Shown here piece after piece: positions 5,537 to 51,339 of a DNA stretch of 64,000 nucleotides. The DNA is from a phage. The stretch lies in sequence record PQ478073.1; one strand, written 5' to 3'. The notes beneath the pieces were generated by a model. It had not been told where the DNA came from. It saw only the letters and a list, made by a program, of their open reading frames with translations, and ran no database searches. Both the position numbers and the translations under genes were made by a program. How positions within the stretch are numbered: the stretch's first letter is position 1; every line of letters begins with the position of its first letter.

Positions 5537-5561
5537 CCGAAATTTAGGAGATTGTATTACT

Positions 5562-25346: not shown

Positions 25347-25756
25347 AATTGTATTGTTTAACTAATATGTACTGCCAAGGTGTCCAAGCTGGTATTCAAG
25401 CATTCCATGCTGGTGTTAAACTAATTAAAGAATATGAAGGTACTGCTTTCAGTACTATTATTGATGAATGGTACTATGAACACGAAACTATTGTAGTACT
25501 AAATGCTGGTGGACATGATAAGTTAAATTTTTATTATAACAACCTTAGCAAACAGGGAAAAGTTCCGTTTGCCAAATTCAATGAAGCTGGATTGAATGAT
25601 GCTATTACCTGTGTAGCAGTACTGTGTACGTCTGAAATGATTGAAGACATGGCTGTTATGCGTATGAATCTTCCTGCTGGTGATCAACTAATGCAAGTAA
25701 AATATGGTGCATTGTTTGACACATTAAAAGCAATCAGCACAATGAGGACTATTTGA
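25343..25756 (+). CDS. hypothetical protein
   Basis: ORF track; ATGA coupling. Confidence 0.55.
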   Translation: MKLYCLTNMYCQGVQAGIQAFHAGVKLIKEYEGTAFSTIIDEWYYEHETIVVLNAGGHDKLNFYYNNLSKQGKVPFAKFNEAGLNDAITCVAVLCTSEMIEDMAVMRMNLPAGDQLMQVKYGALFDTLKAISTMRTI

Positions 25757-26955
25757 TGGATTTTCCAGAGAAGTTATTTGTTGCACGTTCCTATGTAAAC
25801 CACAACCAAGTTGATGGTTTTATTATCGATGCAACAAAATCACATACAAAAGCGTTTGAAACAAAGAAAGAGAGAGCAGAGTACTGGGCAAAGAAGAACA
25901 ATCTTCCATCGTTATATATTGACAACGTTCCAACTACGGGATTTTGTGTAGTTGATAAATTAACAACTCATGCACGAGAAACATATTTCACGATCCGTCA
26001 CCCAGAAGGATTTGAATTTATGATTAGTGCCAAAAACATGAATGATTTAATTATCAATAACGATATAATCAAAGGTGTTTTTGTAGACCCAATGTTTTTC
26101 AACAATAACTTAGAATTAATTAATGGTAAAACAAAAACGTTTGCTAAGTTAGTTGAAAAAGAAAATAAAAAAGAACAACAAAAAGAAACTGTAGCAGGTC
26201 TTAAAGTTGGTGATGGTTTCACTTATCTCAAAGAAGATTACTATTACTGCGGTAAAGTTCATGCAATTTGTATAAAGAAAACTAAAGAATTTGCATACCC
26301 CGACAAAAGTTCTGTTTATCATTTACTTTTCAACAGTACTCGTGGAACTTATGCATTGAATCAACGTTTGGATAATTACAATCTGGAACCTCGTGCACTC
26401 TTGAATAAGAAGACTACGGCAGATGAAGAAATTAAACTTGCTAATGATTTTTGGCAAAGCTATAGAACAAACAGACATAACCCATTAGGTGAATCTAACA
26501 TTCCAGTACTGGTACACAATAAATCATTTAAAGCAAAAGACCTAAAAATTAAATATGAAGAAATAAATGTTGATGATCTTATGAATAATGGACGTTTCAA
26601 CGAGAACGTACCATTTATGACTAAAGATAATGAACAAACATATCGCGTATTTTTTGGTGTAAGTAATAATACAACGCGTAGTTATTATGGGCGTAGTGGA
26701 GATTATAATATCCATTATAATGATAAATTTGAACGCTTTAGTGCATATCCAGTTCAAATTGATGATAATGGGATTATGGTAATGGATGTTGATATTAATG
26801 AACACTCATCATTTAGTACATGGAATGGCTATCGTTCCCCATTCTTCCCACCAAATGAACGCAAAACATCAAGTTCTCGTTACTACCAAGATAAGCCGTG
26901 TCACGTTCAACTATCAATTAGTAATCCACTTTATATTGGAAAGTATTATCTATAA
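25753..26955 (+). CDS. hypothetical protein (400 aa)
   Basis: ORF track; ATGA coupling. Confidence 0.7.
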   Translation: MMDFPEKLFVARSYVNHNQVDGFIIDATKSHTKAFETKKERAEYWAKKNNLPSLYIDNVPTTGFCVVDKLTTHARETYFTIRHPEGFEFMISAKNMNDLIINNDIIKGVFVDPMFFNNNLELINGKTKTFAKLVEKENKKEQQKETVAGLKVGDGFTYLKEDYYYCGKVHAICIKKTKEFAYPDKSSVYHLLFNSTRGTYALNQRLDNYNLEPRALLNKKTTADEEIKLANDFWQSYRTNRHNPLGESNIPVLVHNKSFKAKDLKIKYEEINVDDLMNNGRFNENVPFMTKDNEQTYRVFFGVSNNTTRSYYGRSGDYNIHYNDKFERFSAYPVQIDDNGIMVMDVDINEHSSFSTWNGYRSPFFPPNERKTSSSRYYQDKPCHVQLSISNPLYIGKYYL

Positions 26956-26966
26956 AGGAATATACA

Positions 26967-28385
26967 ATGAGCATTTTAGCAATTCTTGAAAGCATTAAAA
27001 ATACTAGCAGTACACTAGGCAAAAAAGCTATTCTTGAACAAAATAAAGATAATGTAACTTTACAAAAAGTACTGAAATATACTCTAGACCCTTCTATCGT
27101 TAGTGGCTATAAGAAGCTCCCTGCCGCTGATGACGTATATCAACATATGACGTTAGATGAAGCAATTGATAAGCTAGAATGCATTTACAAGCGTGATGTG
27201 ACAGGAAATGCGGGGCGTGATTTCATTGCTTCAGTACTGGGTTCTGTATCTGAAGATGATCAGGAAGTTCTCCGTAAAATGCTTACTAAAAACCTTGATT
27301 GTGGTATTCAAGAAAAGAACTGCAATGATGTATTTGGTAAAGGCTTTATTAAAGACGAACCATATATGCGTTGTTCTTTGATTGACAAAAAGACTGCAAA
27401 GAACATCAACTTCAAAGATTATGGTTACGCTATATCAGAAGTGAAAATGGATGGTCAGTACTTGAACCACGTTGTTATTAATGGTTCATTAACTTCTACA
27501 TCCCGTAATGGTAAACTATACGACTTCCTGGGTTGTCGTGATGGTGAGATGGCAGGTCTTGCTCACATCATCCAAAGTAAAGATGAACGTTTTAGTAGTG
27601 GTGTGGTCTTTATGGGGGAAGGTGTAGTACTGGACAATGATGGGGAAACAATTCTCCCACGCACTACTGGCAACGGTATAATTCAGAAAGCTGGAAAAGA
27701 TAGCATCAGTCAGAATGAAGCAATGCGTACTGTATTCGTTCTATGGGATGTTGTTCCATATGATGCATTTTGTGAAGGTGTATGGGATGTAAAACGTAAA
27801 GAACGTCGCGAGATCTTAGTAGATGCAATTAACGAACTCAATAGTGATTTTGTTCGTATGGTTGGATTCCGTAAAGTTCTAAACATCAAAGAAGCATTTG
27901 AGTACAATAGTGAACTAATGAACGAAGGTGAAGAGGGTTCAGTACTGAAATGTGAAGATGGTATCTGGAAATCTCACACTTCTCCGAAGCAGTTGAAAAT
28001 GAAATTGAAAATGCAACTAGACTTGCGTATTGTTGGTTTCAATGAAGGTGAAGGTAAACGTAAAGGAAGCCTAGGTTCTTTACAACTGGAAAGTGCTTGT
28101 GGTTCATTGAAAGTTAATGTGGGTACTGGTATCAAAGAGAAAGATGCTGAATGGACATTTAAAACCATTTGGGAAAGAATGCAAGAACTTATTGGTAAAG
28201 TGGTTACAGTTGAGTGTAATGACATTGTATTCGAGAAGCGTACTGGTGAGCCATCACTGTTCTTACCAGTGTTTATTGAATTTAGATTTGACAAAAACAC
28301 TTGTGACGACTATACTCGTATTTTAGAAATTCGTGATAGTGCTGTTGAGGTGTTCTCAAACAGTATCATTGAATCACTTGGCTAA
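26967..28385 (+). CDS. ATP-dependent DNA ligase (T4 gp30 type)
   Basis: adenylation motif EVKMDG; N-terminus parallels T4 ligase; AAAGGA RBS. Confidence 0.88.
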   Translation: MSILAILESIKNTSSTLGKKAILEQNKDNVTLQKVLKYTLDPSIVSGYKKLPAADDVYQHMTLDEAIDKLECIYKRDVTGNAGRDFIASVLGSVSEDDQEVLRKMLTKNLDCGIQEKNCNDVFGKGFIKDEPYMRCSLIDKKTAKNINFKDYGYAISEVKMDGQYLNHVVINGSLTSTSRNGKLYDFLGCRDGEMAGLAHIIQSKDERFSSGVVFMGEGVVLDNDGETILPRTTGNGIIQKAGKDSISQNEAMRTVFVLWDVVPYDAFCEGVWDVKRKERREILVDAINELNSDFVRMVGFRKVLNIKEAFEYNSELMNEGEEGSVLKCEDGIWKSHTSPKQLKMKLKMQLDLRIVGFNEGEGKRKGSLGSLQLESACGSLKVNVGTGIKEKDAEWTFKTIWERMQELIGKVVTVECNDIVFEKRTGEPSLFLPVFIEFRFDKNTCDDYTRILEIRDSAVEVFSNSIIESLG

Positions 28386-28404
28386 ACACTTATAGGAGGT
28401 AATT

Positions 28405-29196
28405 ATGAAATTTGTTGTAACGTCTGACGTACACGGTGGTACTGATTACCTCCATAGTGGTGATTACAGTGATACAGTACTGATTATTGCTGGGGACTTC
28501 GATGAAGTTAAACGCAGTCGTTACCGTACTGGTATAGAATCACTATGTAAGCAGTTTAAGAATGTAGTACTGGTTCCTGGCAATCATGAATATTATGGTT
28601 CCAATATCCACAAAACGCATAAAGTACTGTCCGATATGCAAGATGAGATTCCTAATTTCATCTTTTTGCAAAACAAATTTGTATGGCTGGATGGAGTACT
28701 GCTTGTTGGTAGTACTCTGTGGACAGACTTCGATAAAGGTAATTCTTTGACGAAGTTTGATGCTCGTCAGAAGATGAACGATTACAAACATATCCGTCAT
28801 GGAACAACATCAGAGCCTTGGCGTAAGAAACTGACACCAGATGATACTGAGTTTATGCATCACAAAGATAAACAATTTATCAAAAATTCTATTGACACAG
28901 TTCGCTTTATGCATGATAATGATTTCAAGGTCATCGTGGTTACCCATCACGCACCAAGTTATCAAAGTGTTTCACCAAAATATAAAAATGATTCACTGAA
29001 TGGTTGTTACTGTTCCGATATGGATCAGTACATTGAAGATTTGGGTGCTGATGTTTGGATTCATGGTCATGTTCATAGTAGCTTTGACTACCACATTGGT
29101 AAGACACGTATCATTTGTAATCCACGAGGCTATGAATCATACAGTGGAGCTTGTGAGAATTTTGATTACAATCCTAAATTTGTATTTGAAATTTAA
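28405..29196 (+). CDS. calcineurin-like metallophosphoesterase
   Basis: DVHGG, AGDFD, GNHEYYG motifs; AGGAGG RBS. Confidence 0.75.
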   Translation: MKFVVTSDVHGGTDYLHSGDYSDTVLIIAGDFDEVKRSRYRTGIESLCKQFKNVVLVPGNHEYYGSNIHKTHKVLSDMQDEIPNFIFLQNKFVWLDGVLLVGSTLWTDFDKGNSLTKFDARQKMNDYKHIRHGTTSEPWRKKLTPDDTEFMHHKDKQFIKNSIDTVRFMHDNDFKVIVVTHHAPSYQSVSPKYKNDSLNGCYCSDMDQYIEDLGADVWIHGHVHSSFDYHIGKTRIICNPRGYESYSGACENFDYNPKFVFEI

Positions 29197-29208
29197 TGAG
29201 AGGATATT

Positions 29209-29592
29209 GTGTCATTAATTTATTTTGAACTACCAGAATATACCAATTATCCAAGCCGAGTTATTTGCTCAGTTTATAGTAATGCATATCATCACTTGTT
29301 AGTGAATAGTAATAAAGCTGTGCATTATTATCGAAATAAAGAACCACGTACATTAAAGAATCGTTATGGGTTTGACCCAACTAACACTGAAGTTGAACTC
29401 TGTGATCTGTTCGGGGAAGTAATGGTGGTGTTGAAACGAGATATTCATCTTTTCCATACATACAAACTTAATCAGTACTTTATGGAAACACTGTCTATAC
29501 GTTCCCATGCTCCGATGATTAAAGTTGATTTGAATTATGTTGATGATAAATTGAAATATGATTTCATTAATTCACTTGTTTATTTGGAGTAA
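29209..29592 (+). CDS. hypothetical protein, apparent GTG start
   Basis: ORF track; GAGAGGA RBS. Confidence 0.5.
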   Translation: MSLIYFELPEYTNYPSRVICSVYSNAYHHLLVNSNKAVHYYRNKEPRTLKNRYGFDPTNTEVELCDLFGEVMVVLKRDIHLFHTYKLNQYFMETLSIRSHAPMIKVDLNYVDDKLKYDFINSLVYLE

Positions 29593-29593
29593 T

Positions 29594-29998
29594 ATGAATA
29601 TACGTTCAGTACGAATATTTTCATTTGTTGATATGAATAAAAAACACTCTTATGTGTTTGAAAATGTCAATAAGTTAAATCCTCATACGGCAAAAATGAT
29701 TGAAACCATGAAGAACTTGAGTTTACATATAGAAGTTTACTATCTTCATGACGATTCTGTTTATGTATATGATGATGGATGGTATGACGGTGTGTTTTAT
29801 GATGACATTAGCACTACTGCTGATTACTACTTTCTAGTGAGTAATCCACTATTCAGTACTAAAACTTTGTTTGACATTACCGATACAAGCGTGTATGATA
29901 CAAGTCATGTTGAGTTACTTAAGTTTGATCCAGTATTATTCAACAAAGAAACGGCGTATTGGATGACTGATTTCTTTTCAAATATTCCAGTAAAATAG
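29594..29998 (+). CDS. hypothetical protein (start moved from 29558)
   Basis: GGAG RBS before ATG at 29594. Confidence 0.5.
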   Translation: MNIRSVRIFSFVDMNKKHSYVFENVNKLNPHTAKMIETMKNLSLHIEVYYLHDDSVYVYDDGWYDGVFYDDISTTADYYFLVSNPLFSTKTLFDITDTSVYDTSHVELLKFDPVLFNKETAYWMTDFFSNIPVK

Positions 29999-30000
29999 TT

Positions 30001-30028
30001 TGGACATTTTAAATCTTAGTGATATAAT
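30001..30028 (+). promoter_or_regulatory. sigma70-like promoter TGGACA-16-TATAAT with TGn extension
   Basis: about 35 nt upstream of ClpP-like gene; -10 lies in AGTGA/TCACT dyad. Confidence 0.5.
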
Positions 30029-30062
30029 ACTCACTACAACGAAATAATAGAGGAAATTAACA

Positions 30063-30758
30063 ATGGTTGAACAATTCATGTTTGGTGGTTATGCTAATGG
30101 CGAAGTACGTAACATTTCTATTCCTTACGTAGTTGAGAAAGTTAATGGTTCAGAACGTACATATGATCTAGCATCTCGTATGATGCAAGACCGTATCATT
30201 TTCCTTGATACTGATTTCAATGATCAAATGGCACATATCATCAAACAACAATTGGTGTGGTTAGACTCACAAGGTGATTCCCCTATTACATTCTACATTA
30301 GTTCACCTGGTGGTTCAGTACACGCAGGTTTGGGTATTGCAGACGTTGCTAAGTCTTGTATTTCCCCAATCCGCACTGTAGTTATGGGTTATGCGGCATC
30401 AATGGGTTGCTATACACAATCTGTTATTGGAACTAAAGGTTTCCGTTTAGGTGGTAAACGCTCATACTTCATGTGTCACCAAGTAAGTTCTGGTACACAA
30501 GGTCTAATTACAGACCAGAAGATTTCCCTACAACATTCTGATGCACTGAATACATTGTTGACCAAAGAAATTGCAGAAGCAGTAGGCGTATCACATGAAC
30601 AATTACTAAAAGATGCTGACCGCGATTTGTGGTTAAATGCAGAAGAAGCACTTGAATATGGTGAACATGGTTTCATTGATGGTATTATTCTTGGACCGCG
30701 TAACGAAGAAGGCAAGTACTTAGTTAAGCGTCGCGGCGGTGTGGAAGAGTGGGTGTAA
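30063..30758 (+). CDS. ClpP-family serine protease
   Basis: SSPGGSV, GYAASMG (Ser), CHQ (His) pattern typical of ClpP. Confidence 0.8.
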   Translation: MVEQFMFGGYANGEVRNISIPYVVEKVNGSERTYDLASRMMQDRIIFLDTDFNDQMAHIIKQQLVWLDSQGDSPITFYISSPGGSVHAGLGIADVAKSCISPIRTVVMGYAASMGCYTQSVIGTKGFRLGGKRSYFMCHQVSSGTQGLITDQKISLQHSDALNTLLTKEIAEAVGVSHEQLLKDADRDLWLNAEEALEYGEHGFIDGIILGPRNEEGKYLVKRRGGVEEWV

Positions 30759-30806
30759 GATAGATTTTGATGCCTCAATATGGGGCATCATCTTTGTGGA
30801 GATTAT

Positions 30807-31097
30807 ATGAAAGTACTAGTACGTAATAATACGGAAGTAGCAAATGTATTAGAAGATTCCGATTTTATTAATGTTGCGTTCGATCAAATTAGTGCAGTAG
30901 CACTTGAGTTAAAAAATGTGGATGAATCTGAGCGTGTACTAAATGGTTTTGCAATTGTACTTGAATTAATGAAAGAAGTACTAATTAAAAAGAACATTAA
31001 TCCAGTTGATGCGGTTCAACATGCAGAAGCTGTGCGTAAAGAACACGGTACATTCTCTGACAAAAAATACATTCAAACTGATGAGGTAAAAGAATAA
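30807..31097 (+). CDS. hypothetical protein (start moved from 30780)
   Basis: GGAG RBS before ATG at 30807. Confidence 0.5.
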   Translation: MKVLVRNNTEVANVLEDSDFINVAFDQISAVALELKNVDESERVLNGFAIVLELMKEVLIKKNINPVDAVQHAEAVRKEHGTFSDKKYIQTDEVKE

Positions 31098-31098
31098 T

Positions 31099-31545
31099 AT
31101 GTCCAATGCACAATATAAAGATGGTTATGACGCATACAAAGCAAAAGTAGTTCTAAGTGCTGAACAGCTAAAAATGCAGCATCCATTATATCGTCAGGGC
31201 TATCGTGCAGCACAAGCAGAAGCAATGAAGAAAAATAATGTAACTTTCCCTACTACGCTATATGATATTCCAAAACGTCCACACATTTTTAAAGCTGAAT
31301 GGACTGATATTATGGCAGCGACAAAGCGTCCACGTTTTGCTAAATTACACACCGATGAAGGTCGCTGGTTGCTAATGGGGATTATGAAAGCAGTTGAGAA
31401 TCAATCTCATAAGATTGTTCGATATAAAGATGTTGTTGCTATGGTTGATAAAGCATTTGACCTTGTACTTCAATATGGTTATGATGAAGGTGTCCTAACT
31501 GTTTCTGATTGTGAAAAATATCAGTACACCCCATATCAAAAATAA
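31099..31545 (+). CDS. hypothetical protein
   Basis: ORF track. Confidence 0.6.
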   Translation: MSNAQYKDGYDAYKAKVVLSAEQLKMQHPLYRQGYRAAQAEAMKKNNVTFPTTLYDIPKRPHIFKAEWTDIMAATKRPRFAKLHTDEGRWLLMGIMKAVENQSHKIVRYKDVVAMVDKAFDLVLQYGYDEGVLTVSDCEKYQYTPYQK

Positions 31546-31555
31546 TATTACAAAT

Positions 31556-31584
31556 AGGAATCCAGTACTGGATTCCTCTTTTTA
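31556..31584 (+). terminator. rho-independent terminator built on a perfect palindrome containing AGTACT
   Basis: AGGAATCCAGTACTGGATTCCT then T-run. Confidence 0.7.
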
Positions 31585-31669
31585 TTGCTGTATATCAATT
31601 TTCATCGATCAAAAAATGATCTATATAAGCTAAATACCCAAGGAATCATTGTTACTAGGGTAGGTGAAT

Positions 31670-32218
31670 ATGCAGCAATATAATTTAACTGAAGAACAAA
31701 GTGATATTTTTTATCATCATATGTTTTTAATTGATGAGTTTGCTTTGAAAATTAATTCTGAAGCAATTGATATATTGAAGAAATGGTATTCATGTTATAA
31801 TAAAAACAAAAAGTGGTATTGGTTTAATAGAAATTTAAAGTCATTTTTAAAAACAATAACACAAGTTGATAGTGTAGAAATGATACATAGTTCAATTGGA
31901 TATAGTTATTTGACTAAACACAATAATACTATGATATTATCCGGTTTTAAAGTTGAAAGAATTTCAAAGCTTACAGGTTTATCATTAAAAACAATTTTAT
32001 ATGATATAGAAAAGATTTGGAAAACTATAGAATTCATGCACAAAAATATGTCATTCATATATAGAAATTATGATATATTCACTGATGTACGTCAATATCA
32101 TAATAAACCTTATGTATTGAATGAAAAGTACTATAATCATATGGAAGTTTGTTCTAAACTCGTTGATGATTGGAATCTAGAGGGACATAATGAAATACAC
32201 ACACCTAAGTATAGATGA
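31670..32218 (+). CDS. hypothetical protein
   Basis: ORF track (GTG at 31664); ATG at 31670 after AGGTG. Confidence 0.55.
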   Translation: MQQYNLTEEQSDIFYHHMFLIDEFALKINSEAIDILKKWYSCYNKNKKWYWFNRNLKSFLKTITQVDSVEMIHSSIGYSYLTKHNNTMILSGFKVERISKLTGLSLKTILYDIEKIWKTIEFMHKNMSFIYRNYDIFTDVRQYHNKPYVLNEKYYNHMEVCSKLVDDWNLEGHNEIHTPKYR

Positions 32219-32714
32219 TACTAATATCTGGTTAGATAACATAATCAAGACATTAGAATTAATTAAACTTACATTACAAAAAACTACTGATATTGAAATT
32301 AATATTAAACAAGAAATATTAAACTATTATCATAGAAACAAATATAGCACTTTTATCTCTAAATTAATTTATGGATTATATGATATTGAAGATATTTGCA
32401 TCGGTTACAGTACTGGTATTTGCTTCACTGTTAATGGTTTAAAAAATGATTTAAATTTCAGACTTTCCGATGAAGAGCAAGATTTTCGTAGATTTTGTGA
32501 TAATATTATGGATACAGACAAAATTACATTTGTGATTGAATTAAATCAAACATGGTCTACATATGCAGATAAACCATTTGAAATTAATGAAACAGATGTG
32601 TTAAACTATATTCGAGTTATGAAAATTCATGATTTGTGTAAAAACGCATTGTTAAGTATTGGAGCTTATAATGAAACATACGACTTGGTTGAAGATAGCA
32701 GAAGTAGTTGCTGA
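32190..32714 (+). CDS. hypothetical protein
   Basis: ORF track; GAGGGA RBS. Confidence 0.55.
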   Translation: MKYTHLSIDDTNIWLDNIIKTLELIKLTLQKTTDIEINIKQEILNYYHRNKYSTFISKLIYGLYDIEDICIGYSTGICFTVNGLKNDLNFRLSDEEQDFRRFCDNIMDTDKITFVIELNQTWSTYADKPFEINETDVLNYIRVMKIHDLCKNALLSIGAYNETYDLVEDSRSSC

Positions 32715-33150
32715 GGAAAGTAAATGTATTTCACAAAAAGTTGGTTGTGTTATTGTTAAAAATAATAGAGTATTGAGTACTGGATACAATGGAACGCCAT
32801 CTAAGCAGCCAAACTGTTGTGATGTAAATCAACATTTAGTGAACGATGGTCGTTTTCAAGACTGGGTTGATGATGCAGCAAAACATGAACATCATGAGTG
32901 GAGTAATATTCATGAGATCCATGCAGAGATGAACGCTTTACTGTATAGTTCTCCTACTGAACGCCAAGGAGCAACTCTTTACACAACTCTACAACCATGC
33001 TATACTTGTTCTAAGTTAATCGCAGGTAGTGGGATTACCCGTGTAATTTATCACAAAAGTTATCCACGAACACCACCTGAAGCGATTAAAGTACTGGAAG
33101 ATGCTGGGATTATTGTTAACTGCATTTATGACAAGGGTATGAATCAATGA
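32671..33150 (+). CDS. cd: dCMP deaminase
   Basis: zinc-binding HAEMNAL ... PCYTCSKLI; GGAG RBS before ATG at 32671. Confidence 0.8.
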   Translation: MKHTTWLKIAEVVAEESKCISQKVGCVIVKNNRVLSTGYNGTPSKQPNCCDVNQHLVNDGRFQDWVDDAAKHEHHEWSNIHEIHAEMNALLYSSPTERQGATLYTTLQPCYTCSKLIAGSGITRVIYHKSYPRTPPEAIKVLEDAGIIVNCIYDKGMNQ

Positions 33151-33401
33151 CATTTATGATTGTTGGATTACTATCAATATTAGTATTATTTTTTATAACA
33201 GTAATGTTTGTTATTGATGATAATGACATTTCTCAACGAAACTATGAAGTGCGTTTTTCTGCACAAAATAATAAGTACTATATTGTAAACTGTATACACC
33301 GTAGTGAGAAAAGGGTAACAAGTAGATTTGGATTTACCATTTATTATAAAGACCGAGTAGAAGCTGACATGATTTGTCAGAAGCTTAATACTGTAGAATA
33401 A
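33147..33401 (+). CDS. small membrane protein
   Basis: ORF track; hydrophobic N-terminus; ATGA coupling. Confidence 0.5.
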   Translation: MTFMIVGLLSILVLFFITVMFVIDDNDISQRNYEVRFSAQNNKYYIVNCIHRSEKRVTSRFGFTIYYKDRVEADMICQKLNTVE

Positions 33402-33429
33402 AAAAAGGAGCCAGAAGGCTCCTTTTTTG
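33399..33429. terminator. bidirectional rho-independent terminator between convergent genes
   Basis: A-run, stem GGAGCC/GGCTCC, T-run. Confidence 0.75.
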
Positions 33430-33807
33430 TTAACCAGGGATGTTACAATAATACAAATCCCAAGGGTGATATTTCATTTCTCCAGTACTCAATTTAATTT
33501 TATGAAACTGGAATGATTCGGCAAATGCACTATCATCAATCTTAATACAAAAAGTATTTTTTGCTAAAGTTGGTGCAATCTCTAGTGCAGTTTTAGTTGC
33601 ATCTAATCTGATTTTATCTTTATCAAAACTTGTTATAGTTACAAAACGATAAACATTAAAATCAGTGTCGATAAGATCGTAAACACAACTAGAACGTTGA
33701 TTAAAGATGTTCAAGTTATATTTCAATTCACCGTTTATATTAGCGGCGGTTACACAAAAGCCGCCGATATTGAATGGTAATTTACCTTGTGCTGCTATAG
33801 CTTTCAT
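33430..33807 (-). CDS. hypothetical protein (125 aa), the only clear reverse-strand gene
   Basis: ORF track; AGAGGA RBS on - strand; N-terminus GKLPFNIGGF. Confidence 0.65.
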   Translation of the reverse strand: MKAIAAQGKLPFNIGGFCVTAANINGELKYNLNIFNQRSSCVYDLIDTDFNVYRFVTITSFDKDKIRLDATKTALEIAPTLAKNTFCIKIDDSAFAESFQFHKIKLSTGEMKYHPWDLYYCNIPG

Positions 33808-33935
33808 ATTTTATTTCCTCTTATTAATAAACAACTACTTTTACAGATTGTTGTACCTTTTATATTTACACCGTCAACTAAATATCCACCTAAAGTGAAT
33901 GGAAATTGGTCTTGTCCTGCGATTGGTTCCCCCAT
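33804..33935 (-). CDS. short ORF (43 aa) sharing the N-terminal motif of the downstream - strand gene
   Basis: hand-read MGEPIAGQDQFPFTLGGYLVDGVNIKG...; AGGAG RBS; stop overlaps next start (ATGA). Confidence 0.4.
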   Translation of the reverse strand: MGEPIAGQDQFPFTLGGYLVDGVNIKGTTICKSSCLLIRGNKI

Positions 33936-33960
33936 TAAGGGCACTCCTTATAAAAAAGCT

Positions 33961-33989
33961 TTACATTTGGTATGGGTTTGTGATAGAAT
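33961..33989 (+). promoter_or_regulatory. sigma70-like promoter TTACAT-17-TAGAAT
   Basis: about 130 nt upstream of gene at 34117. Confidence 0.4.
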
Positions 33990-34116
33990 CTTCACAGTGA
34001 TTGTACTAAGGGGATTATCAGATGAGGGAAATTTGAGTTAAGTACAGAAAAAGTTTGACTTAAGTGTTTAAGTACTATATTATTTATATCTTCCTAACCA
34101 AAATTAAGGATTTGTT

Positions 34117-34725
34117 ATGAAAAGACTATGGCTTGAGGTAGTACAAGCAGTAATGCTTCTGATGTTGATAAATTTTCCAGCCAGTGCTGGTGTTGAAAGT
34201 AAAAATGTGATAAAGTACAATCCTGAAACACGTAATGTATATTTCATCTCAGATATTACGGATGGGTCACTAAAGCGTATGATGGAGTTGTATGATAAAG
34301 AACACTATGATACCATTACCATCACATCGCCAGGTGGTGATTTTGATGCTGGGATTAAAATGGCAAACTTCGTTAGAGACAATGGTATAAATTTAATTGT
34401 TTCTAGGTATTGCAACTCAGCATGTACTGTGGTATTCTTCAGTGTAGCTTTTGAAAAGCGATACATGATAAATCGCTCAGTACTGGGACTTCATAACATT
34501 TCTATTAAAAGTAATGTTAAAGACGGTGATAATTCTTTTGTATCAGTTAGGCAGCTATCAACTTTTACTGAAGAAATGGCAACTAAAGTAGGTTTTCTAT
34601 TTACACTATATTCTGCAAATGGAATTCCACCAGACGTTCTATATAAAGTTAGCCGTTCGCGTGGTGAAGATGTTGTAATATTAACAAAACCAGAACTGGT
34701 TTTTTACGGTTCAGTCAAACAATAA
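34117..34725 (+). CDS. signal-peptide ClpP-fold serine protease-like protein
   Basis: N-terminal signal-like segment; ITITSPGGDFDAG and NSAC/GLHN resemble ClpP core. Confidence 0.55.
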   Translation: MKRLWLEVVQAVMLLMLINFPASAGVESKNVIKYNPETRNVYFISDITDGSLKRMMELYDKEHYDTITITSPGGDFDAGIKMANFVRDNGINLIVSRYCNSACTVVFFSVAFEKRYMINRSVLGLHNISIKSNVKDGDNSFVSVRQLSTFTEEMATKVGFLFTLYSANGIPPDVLYKVSRSRGEDVVILTKPELVFYGSVKQ

Positions 34726-34795
34726 AAATAATTAAAATAACAGGATGATTATGATGTACTTCCTTTGTTATTAATTATATTGAGATTATATAACT

Positions 34796-35056
34796 ATGAC
34801 AAACATCCAAAATTTGACATCTATTATTTTTTATGCTACAGTAGTGATGTATATTACTGTACTTTTCCTAACAGTTTTCATTTACAAAGATTACAAAAAT
34901 GGCTTTATTGATAACACAACAATGAAGTTCAATTCAAAGTTTGAAGCAATAATTTATTATGTTCTGGCAACATCATATTTGGTGTGTCTAATGTTATTAG
35001 GTACATTGATTTATATTTTATATACAACTTTATTTGCAATTGGAGCTATTTTATGA
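34796..35056 (+). CDS. small membrane protein
   Basis: ORF track; two hydrophobic segments. Confidence 0.5.
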   Translation: MTNIQNLTSIIFYATVVMYITVLFLTVFIYKDYKNGFIDNTTMKFNSKFEAIIYYVLATSYLVCLMLLGTLIYILYTTLFAIGAIL

Positions 35057-35649
35057 CATGTATCATTGCACACACTGATGGTGTAACTTCTTTTATTGCA
35101 GGGGACAAACTGGGAAGTAACGGGTTCACAAAGTCCGTTCAAACTGAGCCTAAAGTATTTGAGAAAGAATTCATTAAAATCAATGATGATGCTGGTTTGA
35201 CCCGTACAAAAGAAATTATGGCGATTGGTTACACCACATCATTCCGTATGGGTCAACTTCTTACTTACAGTTTGAATCTACCACAGCAAGATGCAAATGA
35301 GACGTTTCCACAGTACTTAGTACTGAAAGTTATTCCTATTATTCGTCAAATGTTCAAAGAGGAATGGGGTTCTCGTGATCCTTCACAAGAAGTAGGTGGT
35401 GGACAGTTCATCATTCTTCACAATCATACAATTTATGAAGTTCAAGAAGATTTTTCAGTTCTTCAACCGAAAACACGAATCACCGCCGTAGGTAGCGGAA
35501 CATATCATGCTATTGCAGCAATGCAAGCATATATTGAAGTTGAAAATGAATCAAAAGTGCCACTACATGAACGCATCAAATCAATTTTTAAAATTGTCAG
35601 TGATAATGTAACTAGTGTAAGTGCCGAGTTTGATGTTTTAAAGTATTAA
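35053..35649 (+). CDS. HslV / proteasome beta-subunit-like hydrolase
   Basis: Thr after initiator Met; IAGDKLGSNG and TAVGSGTYHAIAA parallel HslV; GGAG RBS before ATG at 35053. Confidence 0.6.
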   Translation: MTCIIAHTDGVTSFIAGDKLGSNGFTKSVQTEPKVFEKEFIKINDDAGLTRTKEIMAIGYTTSFRMGQLLTYSLNLPQQDANETFPQYLVLKVIPIIRQMFKEEWGSRDPSQEVGGGQFIILHNHTIYEVQEDFSVLQPKTRITAVGSGTYHAIAAMQAYIEVENESKVPLHERIKSIFKIVSDNVTSVSAEFDVLKY

Positions 35650-35667
35650 AATTATAAGAGAGAATAG

Positions 35668-35862
35668 ATGATGGCATACACAATTTATGAATGGGTTTTG
35701 AGTTTTTTTATAGTTTTTTCTATTGTTGTAATTTATAACAATGCTAAATGCTTATACAGGGACTTGAAATCCAATGGTTATCACAAAGATAATAATTTTA
35801 TGTATGCCTATCATATTGGAATAATTCTGTTATTATCAATATATTTAATTGGTTTTTCATAA
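35668..35862 (+). CDS. small membrane protein
   Basis: ORF track; hydrophobic. Confidence 0.45.
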   Translation: MMAYTIYEWVLSFFIVFSIVVIYNNAKCLYRDLKSNGYHKDNNFMYAYHIGIILLLSIYLIGFS

Positions 35863-35871
35863 GGATTGAAT

Positions 35872-36624
35872 ATGATATCAGAAAAATTTATAAGTAATGA
35901 AGGTAAAAAAAGATTACTGATTATATCTGGTGCAGGACTTTCTGTTGAAAGTGGTATGGAACCTTTTCGATTTGATGATGGTTTGTGGGATACATTTAAA
36001 ATCAATGATGTATGTAACATTGCTAGTTTAACTACGAAATATCACGTTGTTCATTCCTTCTATAATACATTACGTGTAAAATTGGGACAATGCGAACCCA
36101 ATGCAATGCATTATTTTATAAAATCGTTAGAAGATCAATATGGTGATTGCTTCCTTCATATGACTTCTAACATGGATGATCTTTATACTCGTATCGGTGG
36201 TCATGAGCTTAAACTTCATGGAAACTTGTGCGAAGTTATTGAAAATTATAGTATCAATTCCGATGATTATAATGTTATTAACTGCGGATACGAACCATAC
36301 ATACCAAAACATGATGTTTTTGCTAAACCAAATGTAGTAATGATTGGAGAATATCATCGTTATGTTGATGGTATTCGCTTACCAATTTACGAAGAACGAA
36401 ATAATGTGTTGAAATCTCTTAATGAAAATGATACAGTTATTGTAATTGGTAGTAGCGATACAGTACTAGTATGGTCGAGATTAGCAGCAGCATTACCATG
36501 TTATAGTGTTAATGTTAACATTCGTAAAAATGATAATGATTTTTTGTTTAATGAAAAAGTTATCAAGCCAGCAACCAAAGCAATACCACATCTAGAGACT
36601 ATAATTAAGGAACGTATGAAATGA
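35872..36624 (+). CDS. Sir2-family (sirtuin-like) NAD-dependent enzyme
   Basis: GAGLSVESGMEPFR NAD-binding motif; HG catalytic pair; GSS near C-terminus; AAGGA RBS. Confidence 0.75.
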   Translation: MISEKFISNEGKKRLLIISGAGLSVESGMEPFRFDDGLWDTFKINDVCNIASLTTKYHVVHSFYNTLRVKLGQCEPNAMHYFIKSLEDQYGDCFLHMTSNMDDLYTRIGGHELKLHGNLCEVIENYSINSDDYNVINCGYEPYIPKHDVFAKPNVVMIGEYHRYVDGIRLPIYEERNNVLKSLNENDTVIVIGSSDTVLVWSRLAAALPCYSVNVNIRKNDNDFLFNEKVIKPATKAIPHLETIIKERMK

Positions 36625-37172
36625 GTGTTAAAGAAGTTCCCTTTGGTGAATATGGCTCACGTGCAAATTTTGTATTTTGTTATTTCTTTGCAAGAAAATG
36701 TAACCCTTACAAAAACTATGAGTTGAATGATATACCAGAAGTAAATTTAGTTTTACTACAATTACGATGGGATGGTCTTCTTGGTGGATGTGGTGGAACC
36801 GTAGAAAGTACTGATATCTCACTAGAAGATGCGTTGCGTCGTGAAGTTCAAGAAGAAATGGATTACAATATTTTTGTTTCCCATCTTCGACCACTCAAAA
36901 CTTTTGAAATTTACCCAGGTGCAAACAGTCATAGTTTTAGCTATGAAGTAAGCTATGACGAGTTGAAACACATTAGAGATGGATACACTAATGCTAAACA
37001 TGCGAGTGCTGAAGTTGCTGGTGTAAATTTATGTCATATTTCTCGTTATTCTAAGGGACAAAATCGAGAAGCGGGATATAATAATCTTATGACACAGAAC
37101 TTCATTGGTACAGCAAAACAAGAATTGGAGTATCTGGTTCAAAAAGAAAACTTACTAATTAGTTATCTATAG
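36621..37172 (+). CDS. Nudix hydrolase
   Basis: Nudix box GGCGGTVESTDISLEDALRREVQEE; ATGA coupling to Sir2 gene. Confidence 0.7.
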   Translation: MSVKEVPFGEYGSRANFVFCYFFARKCNPYKNYELNDIPEVNLVLLQLRWDGLLGGCGGTVESTDISLEDALRREVQEEMDYNIFVSHLRPLKTFEIYPGANSHSFSYEVSYDELKHIRDGYTNAKHASAEVAGVNLCHISRYSKGQNREAGYNNLMTQNFIGTAKQELEYLVQKENLLISYL

Positions 37173-37181
37173 GAGTTTAAC

Positions 37182-37502
37182 ATGTCTTACGCAATGTTTT
37201 TGGATGATATTCGTGATGCAAATCTATATTATCCAAACCAAGATATGGTGGTATGTCGTGACTTTAAAAGTGCATGTGAATATGTTATTGAAAATGGAAT
37301 TCCAGCATTTGTATCATTCGACCATGACTTGGGTGATGTGAGCGAAGACGAAAAGACTGGATATTCTTTTGCTAAGTTTCTTATTGATTATATGTTTGAT
37401 AATAATATTAAAGAACCGTTTGAGTACTTTGTTCACAGTAGTAATCCTGTTGGTAAAATTAATATTGAAACATACTTAAACAATGGATTTAACGCATTAT
37501 GA
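37182..37502 (+). CDS. hypothetical protein
   Basis: ORF track; GGAG RBS. Confidence 0.55.
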   Translation: MSYAMFLDDIRDANLYYPNQDMVVCRDFKSACEYVIENGIPAFVSFDHDLGDVSEDEKTGYSFAKFLIDYMFDNNIKEPFEYFVHSSNPVGKINIETYLNNGFNAL

Positions 37503-37801
37503 TTCAAACACACATCAAAAGTCTTATTTGTACTGTTCTGTTAGGTGCAGGAGTTCTTTGGTTCGGACAGTATCACGAGAACACTAAGCGTACCAACATT
37601 CACTACAATACCGCAGAAGTTGTTAGTTTAGGACAATGTAGCGAGTCCAAATGTTCATTCATGTATAAAACCCAAAGTGGTGAAGTACGTAATGGACTAT
37701 CAAGAGAACCAGTTTCAATTGGTCAACTTGTTTACCAGGAGTGCTGGGAAGAAAAGGTTCGAGGTTCACGTTGCTATGTTGAATACGAACCAAATATGTA
37801 A
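37499..37801 (+). CDS. membrane-anchored hypothetical protein
   Basis: ORF track; N-terminal hydrophobic segment. Confidence 0.5.
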   Translation: MIQTHIKSLICTVLLGAGVLWFGQYHENTKRTNIHYNTAEVVSLGQCSESKCSFMYKTQSGEVRNGLSREPVSIGQLVYQECWEEKVRGSRCYVEYEPNM

Positions 37802-37861
37802 TAATCCGAGTCAATAACATTAGTCGAGTACAAGGATGTACTCATAACTCAAGGATGTTTT

Positions 37862-39301
37862 ATGAAAAAATATACAATTGACACAAACGTACTACTATCT
37901 GACCCTAATGCATCTATTGCTTTTGATGGTGCTGCAATCATTCTACCATTTACAGTACTGGAAGAATTAGATTCGATTAAGAGTCGTAATGTAGATGTTT
38001 CACGCGATGCTCGTGTTGCTATTCGTAACATTGAAGCAATTATTGCAGATGCATCACATGACGAGATTAGTAGTACTGGTGTTAATATTGCTGATGTTCA
38101 TACCAATATGAATCCTGATAGCAAATTGTTTGTTATTACAAACGAAGAAGCTGAGGCACTAATTCGTACTAAAGGTACAGAAGAGAAAGTTCAAACCCTT
38201 CTCAAAAGTACTGTACCTGATGATAAAATCATTCTGGTAGCTTTAGCAACAGAATCAGTACTGGTAACTCGTGATATCAACATGCGTATCAAAGCACTAA
38301 GTTATGGTGTCGAGGTACAAGATTATCGCCATGATATTGTTATTGGTGATAGTGATTTGATTCACATTGGTCAACACCATCTGGAAATCAATTTTTGGGA
38401 AGTATACAGCAACTTAACCAATACTAATATTCAATCCGAACAAGTTGGTCGTCGTTTGTATCATTACATTTCTAAAAGCTTGATTGAACATCTGCTTCCA
38501 CAAAATCTATGCATCGGTGATTATCTATATGATGATGCTGACGTATTATTTGTGTACGAAGGACAATCAGCAATTGAGGAAGATGATGGAACACTAACAC
38601 CAGAAGATATTTTGGTATTCCAAGACATTGGACAATCAGTGGCTTTACGTGCTAAAGTATGGGATATTAAAGCAAAGAATATCCAACAAGCACTCGCCAT
38701 CAACAGTATTCTCGATCCTGATGTACATCTAACAGTACTACTAGGTTCTGCTGGTACTGGTAAAACACTAATTACAATTGCTACTGCATTAGAATTAGTA
38801 CTGGAAAAACGTAAATACGACCGAATCATCTTCTCTAAAACTCAAGACTCACAGTTTGAAGATATTGGTTTCTTGCCAGGTTCAGAAGCAGAAAAAGTGA
38901 TTCCATTCTGTGGAGCCGCGATTGATGCGTTAGAGTTTCTTCATAAAGATGATGCAAACCCACAAGGTAGTATTGAAGAGATTATGAAACGTAATGTTAT
39001 TCAATTTAAAGCACTAAACTTTGTACGTGGACGTTCATTCACCAACACTATTCTAGTAGTTGATGAATTCCAAAACATTACACCTGCACAAGCAAAAACC
39101 ATCTTGACACGAGCAGGGTTAAACTGTAAAGTAGTAATTATGGGTAACTTGAGTCAGATTGACAGTAAGTTTATTAGTCCTGTTAACAGTGGTTTGACAT
39201 ATGTAACTGAGAAGTTTAAAGACTGGGCAGGTTGTCGTGTCATCGAACTAGAAGGTGTTGTTCGTTCACCACTGGCTGAATTTGCTGAAGAAAATATGTA
39301 A
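37862..39301 (+). CDS. phoH: PhoH-family ATPase with N-terminal PIN domain
   Basis: Walker A LLGSAGTGKT; PIN-like acidic N-terminus (DTN ... EELD). Confidence 0.85.
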   Translation: MKKYTIDTNVLLSDPNASIAFDGAAIILPFTVLEELDSIKSRNVDVSRDARVAIRNIEAIIADASHDEISSTGVNIADVHTNMNPDSKLFVITNEEAEALIRTKGTEEKVQTLLKSTVPDDKIILVALATESVLVTRDINMRIKALSYGVEVQDYRHDIVIGDSDLIHIGQHHLEINFWEVYSNLTNTNIQSEQVGRRLYHYISKSLIEHLLPQNLCIGDYLYDDADVLFVYEGQSAIEEDDGTLTPEDILVFQDIGQSVALRAKVWDIKAKNIQQALAINSILDPDVHLTVLLGSAGTGKTLITIATALELVLEKRKYDRIIFSKTQDSQFEDIGFLPGSEAEKVIPFCGAAIDALEFLHKDDANPQGSIEEIMKRNVIQFKALNFVRGRSFTNTILVVDEFQNITPAQAKTILTRAGLNCKVVIMGNLSQIDSKFISPVNSGLTYVTEKFKDWAGCRVIELEGVVRSPLAEFAEENM

Positions 39302-48595: not shown

Positions 48596-48642
48596 ATGTA
48601 TATAAATACATTAACTAATATCTAATTTATAAGGGATATATA

Positions 48643-51339
48643 ATGTCAAAGAAAATATATGGTGGCTTGGATGTCACACATAATGTGACAGTTAATGGTA
48701 AAAGAACAATACAAGGTATCAATGATCAAGTATTTGATGCTAATGGCAATATGGAGCTAGATACTTATTCAAGAGATGAAGTACTAGATATCGTCAGTAT
48801 GATGCCAATTTCCCATTATGGGTCACAAAACTATCTTCCTGCTGGTGTATCTGGTGATTTCAATGGTGCATCTGAAAACCAGTCCCAACGTAGAAATAAA
48901 ATTTTATTAGAAAACGATGGTACACTCGTATTATTACGTAGTGGTACAAACGGTAGTGTTGAGGGATTATATTATTCATATTTGGCTAACGCATTATCAG
49001 TTGATGACATGAGCCGTACAATTAACACCAGTCGTCAATACAAGCCTGGTTTTTTCGGTTCAAATCGCGTCGCAATTGGCTTATACAATACTGATCCAAA
49101 TATTTTACTCGGTAGATATGTAGACACTTCTAACAGTACTAATGGATTGTTTATTTCTATTACTAATGGTACATTAGATGATAAATTACATACTGGTTTT
49201 TTTGTAAATCAAGCAGATATTTGCCCTGAAGGGGGTATAGAATTTGCAATGATGGCTGAAGATGGTTCAATCTATGTCTTTAGTGTTCTTAATGAAAATA
49301 ACCAACTACAGTTAGTTGTTGTCCGAGTTGTATATAATATTAGCAATGGAACATATACGGCAACTCGTATTACAGGATGGACTACAAAAACATTCTATAA
49401 TACAACTTATTCTGCACAGAATAACATGGTTATTACTAATCAAGTAACTTCAACTAATATAGCAGATAAGCCTTATGTGTATGTACCACAAAACCTACGT
49501 GGTATTGGGATTTATATGACATCCATTGATTTGTATGTTGCACAGCAACCAGGAACACAGAACTTTCGTTTTAGAATGAATGGTGATGCATGGTTTACAA
49601 TGGCGACATATAATGTCCGACCACAACATAGCTACAGCTTTGCATTTAATATGAGTACTAAACAATGCACCCTAGACGCTGGGAATGACATAGGTTCATA
49701 TCAAGCACCATTGGTTATAACCAATACTGGCTCTGCATTAGTGCCTACAGGTAACGTTTTAAATAATGATCCATTATATAATCATGCTGGTGCAAGAAAC
49801 ATTTATAGTTCATATTTTTATTTGAATTCTGGTGAAGCTTTTTGTACTGCATGTCCAAACTTAGCAGAACCATTACTTATGCAAAAAGCTAAGTTTCCTA
49901 TTCAAATAGTTTATAGTATGCTGAATGTCCGTGCTGTACTTTCTACTGACTTCAAAGGTGGTATAGTTCGCCCGTCTTTTGGTTCAGCGGTTGGTTCATT
50001 TATTAATGGTGTAGAATTACTACCAGATAACAGTACTAAACAATATTCACGTGCATCAGGTAGTGGTGGATTTAGACCATCATATGCAGTTCATAAAAGT
50101 ACTCCTAATTTTACATTTAAATCATTATCTTTAGGAACAATACAAGGTTATGAACCTACAGTTGAACGTGCTAATGTTGATGATAATGCAAATAATAGAA
50201 TTTTTATTAGTAGTATTTCTGGGTCAACTGTCACAACCAATGGTGGTATTTTTATGGTTGGGCAACGTTATTCACAATCATTATCCTATGATAAAAACTT
50301 AAATGGCACAGGAATTATAAGCGTTACACAATCAGTACTGGACAATTTTAGAAATACTGAATATGCCAAAGTTCTAAGTGACTGGAATTTATCAGCACAA
50401 GCATACCGTGATATGACACTATTTGTTCCACAACAAACAGACATTCCAGCTTTTGTTATGTTGAGTACAATTACTAATGATTATAGAAACTATATTAGAA
50501 TTGCTGAAGTTAATGTCAATACTAGAGTTGGTAATATTACATCTATTACATTTAAGCGTTTAGTACTTGAGAATACGTATGGTGATAACTTTACACCAAC
50601 TGGGAATGGTTCGATTGCATCTTCTTCTGTTGGTTTGACCATATATGATGGTGGTTCATTCTACTTCATTGGTGGTTCTGACCCATTATCACATCCAACA
50701 ATAGGTAATACTGCAACTCATCAATTTAGAGCATATGTAACTAAATCAACTGCACAATTTACAAGTTTTATAATTACTGGTTCTCATGCCAGTTATGAAC
50801 AAGGAAGTCAACCAGCAGCGTTACCTGGTATTGGTTTTGGAATTTTTGAACCAATGGATTACTCAAATAAAATGACATTCAAAAAATATGGAACAACGAT
50901 TGCAGACTATAATAACTGGACTGCACAAGGTAGCCCAATTAACGTAGTATCCCAGGACGTTGCTCAAGGGTTTATTGTATATTTTACAGAGGAAACACCA
51001 GTTATTCTTTCAGGTAAGTCATTTTCACTACCAGTTTCAAATATTGATTTGAGAACTATTAAGTCTAATCCAGCAAATACAACATTTTATGTATATGTTA
51101 AATTGGAACAAGGATTGGCAAACTATTACATAACTACTGATGTTATTTCTGAAACAGGAACAACTGCATATAATATTTTTTGGATAGGTACAATTCAAAC
51201 TAACGCAATTCAAATCGAAACAATTAATATACAAAAACGTTCCCGTTTAGATATATTTGGTGCTTCACTTGAATCAGCAGGTTCATCGTTCCCAGTTAGC
51301 TACGGTCTACCATCACAAACAGGAACCATAAACTGGTAA
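48643..51339 (+). CDS. tail-fibre-like protein 1 (putative receptor-binding protein)
   Basis: 898 aa, Asn/Ser/Thr/Gly-rich; paralogous to 51955 gene; shared C-terminal module. Confidence 0.55.
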   Translation: MSKKIYGGLDVTHNVTVNGKRTIQGINDQVFDANGNMELDTYSRDEVLDIVSMMPISHYGSQNYLPAGVSGDFNGASENQSQRRNKILLENDGTLVLLRSGTNGSVEGLYYSYLANALSVDDMSRTINTSRQYKPGFFGSNRVAIGLYNTDPNILLGRYVDTSNSTNGLFISITNGTLDDKLHTGFFVNQADICPEGGIEFAMMAEDGSIYVFSVLNENNQLQLVVVRVVYNISNGTYTATRITGWTTKTFYNTTYSAQNNMVITNQVTSTNIADKPYVYVPQNLRGIGIYMTSIDLYVAQQPGTQNFRFRMNGDAWFTMATYNVRPQHSYSFAFNMSTKQCTLDAGNDIGSYQAPLVITNTGSALVPTGNVLNNDPLYNHAGARNIYSSYFYLNSGEAFCTACPNLAEPLLMQKAKFPIQIVYSMLNVRAVLSTDFKGGIVRPSFGSAVGSFINGVELLPDNSTKQYSRASGSGGFRPSYAVHKSTPNFTFKSLSLGTIQGYEPTVERANVDDNANNRIFISSISGSTVTTNGGIFMVGQRYSQSLSYDKNLNGTGIISVTQSVLDNFRNTEYAKVLSDWNLSAQAYRDMTLFVPQQTDIPAFVMLSTITNDYRNYIRIAEVNVNTRVGNITSITFKRLVLENTYGDNFTPTGNGSIASSSVGLTIYDGGSFYFIGGSDPLSHPTIGNTATHQFRAYVTKSTAQFTSFIITGSHASYEQGSQPAALPGIGFGIFEPMDYSNKMTFKKYGTTIADYNNWTAQGSPINVVSQDVAQGFIVYFTEETPVILSGKSFSLPVSNIDLRTIKSNPANTTFYVYVKLEQGLANYYITTDVISETGTTAYNIFWIGTIQTNAIQIETINIQKRSRLDIFGASLESAGSSFPVSYGLPSQTGTINW

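Follow-up and report, generated by a model that had tools for sequence, protein, structure and literature searches.

What is a pair of short, coupled reverse-strand genes doing in a jumbo phage genome, when nearly everything around it is read in the opposite direction? In the 64-kb stretch of DNA analysed here (hereafter the window), 70 open reading frames (ORFs) are at least 110 aa long, and only one non-nested ORF among them lies on the - strand. The original prediction had described this 125-aa ORF and a second one of 43 aa as a coupled cassette in a neighborhood almost entirely on the + strand, flanked by a bidirectional terminator and a + strand promoter, with both ORFs starting with the same N-terminal motif. 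That description proved accurate in each of these respects. Its interpretation was that the short ORF could be a truncated paralog or a leader peptide of the long one, and that the pair could be a moron-like insertion or a separately timed gene. Here, we favor an account that we regard as very probable, in which the cassette consists of a conserved virion gene and the scar of a 636/637-aa sister gene that suffered a deletion of about 1.8 kb, both placed in an ancient and variable slot and probably transcribed from a late promoter box to a terminator.

The 1.4 kb around the cassette is 99.5% identical to Escherichia phage 121Q and about 90% identical to some 20 PBECO4-like phages. Elsewhere in the window, an 898-aa ORF (48643-51339) is 97.0% identical to 121Q gp499 and 99.0% identical to phage CRJP21. 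These similarities indicate that the window belongs to a 121Q-like Asteriusvirus, a Rak2-like jumbo myovirus, which is distinct from 121Q and departs from it in spacing by about 1 kb. The longer ORF of the cassette (33430-33807, - strand, 125 aa) is 100% identical to 121Q gp471, which occupies the same slot on the same strand and shares the terminator. The shorter one (33804-33935, - strand) equals 121Q gp472 and encodes 43 aa from its ATG, or 46 aa from an alternative GTG start at 33944. In the 121Q record, gp471 is annotated as "virion structural protein; Ig domain" and gp472 as "hypothetical protein".

The TGA of gp472 overlaps the ATG of gp471 (ATGA), so that the two ORFs are physically coupled. 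Reading of the sequence places a Shine-Dalgarno motif 8 nt before each ATG: AAGGAG for gp472 (33944-33949, - strand) and AGAGGA for gp471 (33816-33821, - strand), the latter within the 3' end of gp472. The stretch that carries the gp471 ribosome-binding site, AGGAAATAAAATATG, is common to phages PBECO4 and G17, both of which are devoid of gp472.

The motif common to gp472 and gp471 (11 identities in 25 positions; pairwise BLASTP E 2e-6) exceeds chance, and a tblastn search of the entire window, translated in all six frames, recovered it as well (E 8e-5 and 1e-3). At the DNA level, blastn of gp472 against gp471 gave no match. The N-terminal 29 residues of gp472 have their closest counterparts in two large genes of metagenomic relatives, L007_637 and L012_636 (MGKPIAGQNQFPYTIGGFLVDGAKINGVT...), with 20 of 29 residues (69%) identical to each. 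The corresponding figures are 16/27 for L012_629, 14/25 for the stub found in phage A4, and 11/23 (48%) for gp471. The proposal that gp472 is a truncated paralog was thus right as to its nature and wrong as to its parent, which is to be sought in the 636/637-aa lineage and not in the adjacent 125-aa gene.

Both ends of such a large gene can be recognized in gp472. Its 5' part (MGEPIAGQDQFPFTLGGYLVDGVNIKG; 33856-33935, - strand) corresponds in frame to codons 1 to ~27 of the large paralog. At the DNA level, 80 nt are 76% identical to the start of L007_637 (E 1e-11) and 116 nt are 77% identical to L012_636 (E 5e-20). Its 3' part (33822-33852, - strand) corresponds to the last ~9-11 codons and the stop of the large paralog, out of frame. 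This part matches the 3' end of L012_636 in 26 of 31 nt (0 of 5000 shuffles as good) and that of L007_637 in 15 of 18 (80 of 5000 shuffles as good). When read in frame +1, it yields QQSVKVVVY followed by two stops, to be compared with QTSFKIIVY and QTSFKVIVY, each followed by one. In an alternative alignment, which was weaker (60 of 5000 shuffles as good) and not significant against L007, the 3' part was paired, allowing a 2-nt indel, with codons 30-38 of L012_636. The exact deletion junction is ambiguous, and more than 90% of the gene is gone under either alignment to the intact reference genes, which come from metagenomic contigs and offer only ~76% DNA identity.

The most economical account of these observations is the following. 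Rak2-like jumbo phages hold from one to four tandem reverse-strand genes of the family in this slot, and a gene of the 636/637-aa type, the second member of the array, once stood upstream of gp471. The gene order of 121Q is found in L007, where the gp471 ortholog comes immediately after the 637-aa gene. An internal, out-of-frame deletion of ~1.8 kb then joined codon ~27-29 of the upstream gene to its last ~10 codons, and its promoter region, ribosome-binding site and start codon outlived the event. An AAGGAG homologous to the Shine-Dalgarno motif of gp472 is present upstream of L007_637, and the motif was in all likelihood inherited from the large paralog. Translation, if any, would pass the old stop in the wrong frame and run on to the TGA that overlaps the start of gp471, and the ATGA overlap can be understood as a product of the frameshift made by the deletion. 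A repeat-mediated deletion was considered and rejected, as the intact gene shows no above-chance similarity between its 5' and 3' regions. A programmed frameshift fusing gp472 to gp471 was rejected as well; it has nothing in its favor, and its product would carry two tandem N-terminal motifs.

Distribution of gp472 is restricted to the 121Q lineage, and the ORF is missing in PBECO4, G17 and phAPEC6. Upstream of gp471, PBECO4 and G17 have, in place of the ~220 bp of the window (~33808-34027), ~135 bp of unrelated sequence that contains no ORF and in which blastn found no significant match to a large-gene remnant. The gp472 junction is present in 121Q and also in an independent metagenome contig, OEQX01000020.1, which shares 95.1% identity with the window across 12.9 kb. 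The gp472 copy of this contig has two base differences, one synonymous and one causing an E3K change that reverts to the family consensus. In all three sources the ORF is intact and stands behind a strong ribosome-binding site, with two substitutions in total, too few to gauge selection. Searched against the protein families PHROG 33171 and PHROG 10468, gp472 reached E values of 0.039 and 0.14, with homology limited to residues 1-29, and it is best described as a fragment of a family member, not itself a member. The remnant nature of gp472 and its origin are new here and are not annotated in public records.

The slot itself lies between dCMP deaminase/gp470 and a ClpP-like protease gene. A family member occupies it on the reverse strand in all relatives for which the surrounding genes were examined, a comparison that covers Asteriusvirus, Alcyoneusvirus, Mimasvirus and two metagenomic relatives. 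The number of tandem paralogs in the slot varies from one to four depending on the relative. A single gene is present in PBECO4 and G17 (125 aa), UE-S1 (633 aa), RaK2 (212 aa) and GAP32 (303 aa). Phage A4 has a 65-aa stub, a 43-aa ORF and genes of 722 and 124 aa. Logan contig L007 has three ORFs (637, 162 and 162 aa), and L012 has four genes (629, 538, 312 and 636 aa). Because every examined relative has a reverse-strand member there, position and orientation of the slot are ancestral to the whole Rak2-like group.

Gene decay in the slot is not limited to gp472. In A4, a decayed first copy (a pseudogene) precedes the intact 722-aa gene, and UE-S1 has lost precisely the coding part of this A4-type pseudogene, ~420 nt, between flanks that are 85-90% identical. 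The two 162-aa ORFs of L007 correspond to the N-terminal 162 and the C-terminal 159 residues of a 538-aa-type protein, so that this gene has been split in two by an internal deletion. gp472 is a further case of paralog turnover. Jumbo phage genome expansion via tandem duplication has been discussed for phAPEC6 (PMC7247149, citing Hua et al.). The slot resembles the tandem paralog arrays of jumbo phages in its content of pseudogenes, split genes and deletion scars, but what is seen here is loss rather than gain, and 121Q and PBECO4 represent lineages in which the array is close to minimal.

Other readings of the pair have to be weighed against this evidence. The presence of an N-terminal motif in two adjacent genes could reflect a recent partial tandem duplication of the 5' end of gp471. 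However, the closer identity of gp472 to the 636/637-aa genes, the restriction of its DNA matches to large genes and its large-gene 3' remnant all make this origin highly unlikely. A functional leader peptide or upstream ORF, steering gp471 translation through the ATGA overlap, would fit the strong ribosome-binding site of gp472, the position of its stop codon and its intact reading frame in three sources. Yet about 20 PBECO4-like genomes keep gp471 and the same ribosome-binding site with no ORF upstream, and in one such phage, phAPEC6, the product is found in virions (PMC7247149). In A4 and UE-S1, the remnants at the same position have another length and another sequence, and the overlap on which the steering would depend is itself explained by the deletion frameshift. 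We consider the leader peptide of the original prediction improbable. It has also been contemplated that the 43-aa peptide could be a functional mini-protein that mimics the N-terminal arm of the family and competes for, or caps, a binding site in the virion. The peptide is expressible and still contains PIAGxxxFPFxxGG, the N-terminal motif that is best conserved in the family, but one third of it is out-of-frame sequence and it is missing from most relatives. Residues 1-29 of the gp471 AlphaFold2 model, which match the homologous part of gp472, comprise only the N-terminal arm and the first hairpin of a larger beta domain, and autonomous folding of the gp472 peptide is for this reason unlikely. 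A conserved small peptide is further disfavored because remnants vary in length and sequence among lineages. Such a mini-protein is very unlikely, and the gp472 peptide is most likely non-functional.

The suggestion of a moron, i.e., a horizontally acquired and independently transcribed insertion, is understandable, since the cassette opposes all of its neighbors and does have, at the sequence level, the promoter-like sites and terminator of its own that are used to recognize morons. This reading fails because slot and orientation are conserved in every relative examined, across three genera and the metagenomic relatives. Comparison of related genomes for presence or absence had been proposed as a check, with universal conservation at this position as the outcome that would speak against an insertion, and a family member was never missing from the slot in the relatives examined. 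Composition of the cassette is unremarkable (GC 0.32-0.33, compared to 0.24-0.39 in the flanks), a PADLOC scan with defense-system models found no match in it, and gp471 encodes a virion protein under purifying selection. The only lineage-specific part of the cassette is the gp472 segment, which is a loss scar. A moron is, in our judgment, extremely unlikely.

Along its entire length, gp471 matches PHROG 33171 (E 3e-88), and it also matches the first 125 of the 384 positions of the broader PHROG 10468, "virion structural protein" (E 2e-12). It is 96-97% identical to its PBECO4-like orthologs and 97% identical to phAPEC6 gp347. The latter, a protein of 14.1 kDa, was detected in purified phAPEC6 virions by ESI-MS/MS, where 8 peptides covered 75% of it (PMC7247149), and the CBB homolog, CBB_112, was likewise detected by MS (PMC5259590). 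By analogy to these orthologs, the gp471 product is expected to be present in virions. Comparison to PBECO4, G17 and phAPEC6 revealed 24-26 nucleotide differences but only 4 amino-acid differences, and dN/dS values of 0.036-0.041 point to strong purifying selection on gp471.

A word-index homology search with gp471 returned two proteins only, and it was an exhaustive phmmer search of 1.8 billion representatives that revealed its family, with 75 representatives at 50% identity. With the exception of P0066 and P0076, which are weak multi-stretch matches, the matched stretch begins at residue 1 or close to it, and the proteins of the family are between 76 and 1,859 aa long in total. The general architecture is an N-domain of ~120 aa followed by 0 to >1,500 aa, often with Big_2 Ig-like repeats, of which there is one in RaK2 gp496 and six in UE-S1 gp422. 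A Pfam scan of the C-terminal region of the 636/637-aa type gave no match. GAP32 gp111 and CBB_112 also belong to the family, as does a second gene, also conserved and located beyond the window elsewhere in the genome, the 380-aa gp155 of 121Q.

gp471 carries the signature of the N-domain family (M-G-K-P-I-A ... P-F ... G-G ... KQRS ... DL) and aligns end to end with 34 relatives. It ends (CNIPG-stop) at the N-domain boundary, 3 nt short of the terminator. Its AlphaFold2 model, obtained with 35 family sequences, is confident and mostly beta (pLDDT 84.7, pTM 0.79), with the N-terminal arm as the lower-confidence part. gp471 is the N-domain of a jumbo phage family, standing alone. A Pfam scan of gp471 and gp472 found no match, hence no Big_2/Ig-like domain. 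The "Ig domain" note of the 121Q public records is inapplicable to gp471 because this protein is a bare N-domain, whereas the Ig-like domain was found here only in its longer relatives.

The longer members of the family resemble T4 Hoc-type proteins, in which a virion-associated anchor displays Big_2 modules. Indeed, the family profile matches the Big_2 parts of solved phage proteins. Big_2 Ig-like domains set on an anchoring domain occur in T4 Hoc and Hoc-like proteins, T5 pb10, "decoration protein gp29" (PDB 9kmh), and the C-terminal domains of lambda gpV and T5 pb6. A role in host adhesion has been proposed for RaK2 gp496 (PMC3622015). Because a bare N-domain protein is present in virions, we infer that the N-domain may serve as a virion-attachment module and that the C-terminal modules of its relatives may be displayed cargo. 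One can go further and imagine an undescribed docking module for interchangeable surface modules such as Ig-like arrays, perhaps at the base of the fibers seen at hexamer centers or of the tail "hairs" of phAPEC6 and CBB. Under this view, the array beside dCMP deaminase would undergo birth and death of genes and thereby tune what the particle displays, and bare gp471 would fill docking sites without adding cargo. This extended version is tentative, and we would not expect it to hold in full. The phAPEC6 reconstruction does contain several surface densities without an assigned protein (PMC7247149), and the phiKp24 cryo-EM paper gives no assignment for the gp471 family.

Searches of the PDB by single sequence and by profile never matched the N-domain, and hits were confined to the Big_2 part of its relatives. 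High scores in BFVD were limited to family members. The weaker BFVD matches (E >= 1.2e-3) were unannotated phage proteins, for example from Agrobacterium phage Atu_ph07 and uncultured Caudovirales, and gave no functional lead. A scan of IMG/VR with gp471 returned 121Q alone. The profile and structure searches that had been suggested for the 125-aa protein therefore succeeded in placing it in a PHROG family, but they yielded no solved structural relative of its N-domain. New here is the view of gp471 as the bare, probably virion-docking N-domain of a surface-protein family that has neither a Pfam family nor a solved structural relative.

Taken together, the pair is a known and annotated virion gene plus the scar of a sister gene, a case of ordinary gene-family decay, and current understanding is not overturned by it. 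Importantly, the findings have consequences for annotation: 121Q gp472 and its copies should be labeled as gene remnants, and the "Ig domain" note of gp471 should be dropped. Being compact, conserved and present alone in virions, the N-domain is a good candidate attachment module for Ig-bearing surface proteins in Rak2-like phages. In addition, the slot illustrates clearly, on a small scale, how paralogs turn over in jumbo phage genomes.

The timing of the cassette was also addressed, as the original prediction had contemplated a separately timed gene. The cassette is bounded on one side by a bidirectional intrinsic terminator (33401-33426, both strands) with the structure GGAGCC-AGAA-GGCTCC flanked by an A-run and a T-run. 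This hairpin folds on either strand (-17.6/-17.7 kcal/mol; z -5 to -6), with 0 of 200 shuffles as stable, and the record of phage G17 lists a terminator at the homologous site. The hairpin is predicted to terminate transcription of the + strand dCMP-deaminase/gp470 unit as well as that of the - strand cassette. A simple terminator scan of the region missed it, probably because the A and T runs pair and use up the T tail. An Rfam scan of the region had no match above threshold, and its sub-threshold matches were mostly driven by the terminator hairpin.

On the other side of the cassette, the anticipated + strand promoter corresponds to two sigma-70-like sites, each matching consensus at 10 of 12 positions. 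TTTACA-18-TAGAAT with a TG (33960-33989, + strand) lies in the segment that only the 121Q lineage has. TTGACT-17-TATTAT (34055-34083, + strand) is conserved, precedes the ClpP-like protease gene (34117-34725) and belongs to the neighboring context, outside the cassette. Directed toward the cassette are a weak sigma-70-like site, TTAACT-16-GATAAT (34014-34041, - strand; 9/12, a consensus match only), and a T4-type late-promoter motif, TATAAATA (34081-34088, - strand). The latter lies 146 nt from the gp472 ATG and ~275 nt from the gp471 ATG. The TATAAATA box is rare, with 2 copies in the AT-rich window versus 12.6 +/- 3.4 expected. It is kept at the homologous place in 121Q, PBECO4, G17, phAPEC6 and L007, although the conservation of the box could be explained solely by its overlap with the -10 region of the + strand protease promoter. 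In L012 and A4, the same place reads ATAAATA, and an exact box was not found upstream in RaK2, GAP32 and L012. A second exact box is present in A4 and UE-S1, 37 nt before the intact large gene. The ATAAATA motif upstream of structural genes has been proposed as the late promoter of the Rak2-like phages CBB and GAP32 (PMC5259590).

The presence of a rare box facing the cassette suggests separate late transcription, which would probably begin at this box and end at the bidirectional terminator and would place a virion gene on its own schedule amid + strand genes. The idea of a separately timed gene is therefore upheld as far as its own signals are concerned, box and terminator, and late timing is plausible from sequence. 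The likeness to T4-type late promoters lies in an exact box that points into the cassette and is depleted elsewhere in the window. Differences are the unusually long distance from the box to the first start codon (146-188 nt here, versus 35-37 nt for other genes) and the fact that CBB yielded no homologs of T4 gp33 and gp45 (PMC5259590). The other copy in the window (48601-48608, + strand) is located just past a terminator and 35 nt before the 898-aa ORF, whose phAPEC6 ortholog, gp323c, is an MS-detected virion protein (PMC7247149). That the rare TATAAATA boxes are so closely tied to virion-protein genes is, like the origin of gp472, an observation new to this study.

The window holds far fewer copies of the box TATAAATA than expected, with 2 observed against 12.6 ± 3.4. 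One copy lies on the reverse strand at 34081-34088, upstream of the gene whose phAPEC6 ortholog is gp347 (the 125-aa gp471), and the other on the forward strand at 48601-48608, upstream of the gene with phAPEC6 ortholog gp323c. Both of these phAPEC6 orthologs were identified as virion proteins by mass spectrometry. The rarity of TATAAATA, together with the position of both copies before virion-protein genes, therefore suggests that it is a T4-type late promoter avoided in the rest of the genome. In phages UE-S1 and A4, another TATAAATA box, the second there, lies ahead of the intact gene, as does a hairpin resembling a terminator.

The top-scoring sigma-70-like site among those of the forward strand (TTTACA-18-TAGAAT with TG, 33960-33989) lies within a segment exclusive to the 121Q lineage, back to back with the ribosome-binding site of the stub, gp472. 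A conserved promoter-like site at 34055-34083 already lies in front of the protease gene.

Signs of gene decay were found in the same slot of relatives. The metagenomic Logan contig ERR11558579_12390 carries a pair of overlapping 162-aa ORFs (5001-5974) that match the 538-aa protein of another metagenomic relative (L012) at residues 3-162 and 380-538. This pair is a gp471-lineage gene broken in two by an internal deletion. The 374-bp intergenic region of UE-S1 (3127-3500) is 85-90% identical to the flanks of the first-copy pseudogene of A4 (compared over A4 3303-4117) and lacks the ~420 nt containing A4_466. UE-S1 represents one more decay step at the position of the A4 pseudogene.

The metagenome contig OEQX01000020.1 is 95.1% identical to window 25525-38453 across 12.9 kb, whereas in the ~750-bp cassette no more than 4 substitutions and one 1-nt indel, 5 positions in all, separate the two. 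Because its local identity is far above the 12.9-kb average, the cassette segment may have undergone recent recombination. The cassette region is also 99.5-100% identical to that of 121Q. Elsewhere, the 898-aa protein (48643-51339) is 99.0% identical to its counterpart in phage CRJP21 versus 97.0% to 121Q gp499, and between 33000 and 48643 the spacing departs from that of 121Q by ~1 kb. The window phage is thus distinct from 121Q itself and has the look of a mosaic relative.

At another locus, 121Q (gp155, 83328-84470, outside the window) and Salmonella phage PHA46 (2501-3643) encode a second member of the family, also conserved (~380 aa, PHROG 10468). In PHA46 it is again a lone gene oriented opposite to the adjoining genes.

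The slot is flanked by a cluster of three protease-like genes (window 30063-35649; 121Q gp464, gp473 and gp475). One encodes a ClpP-like head maturation protease, another a protein that resembles ClpP weakly (Pfam E 0.007, below threshold), and the third an HslV-family peptidase. The neighborhood is kept in PBECO4/G17 as well as in UE-S1 and A4 (partly annotated just as "hypothetical protein"); in the stretches of RaK2 and GAP32 that were read, the ClpP-like protease was the sole cluster member seen. Nearby, 121Q gp468 (window 32190-32714) is a 174-aa "virion structural protein". Its PBECO4 ortholog (2189-2714) is annotated as two CDSs, gp101 and gp100, a split that could stem from a frameshift or from an error in sequencing, or could mark a pseudogene.
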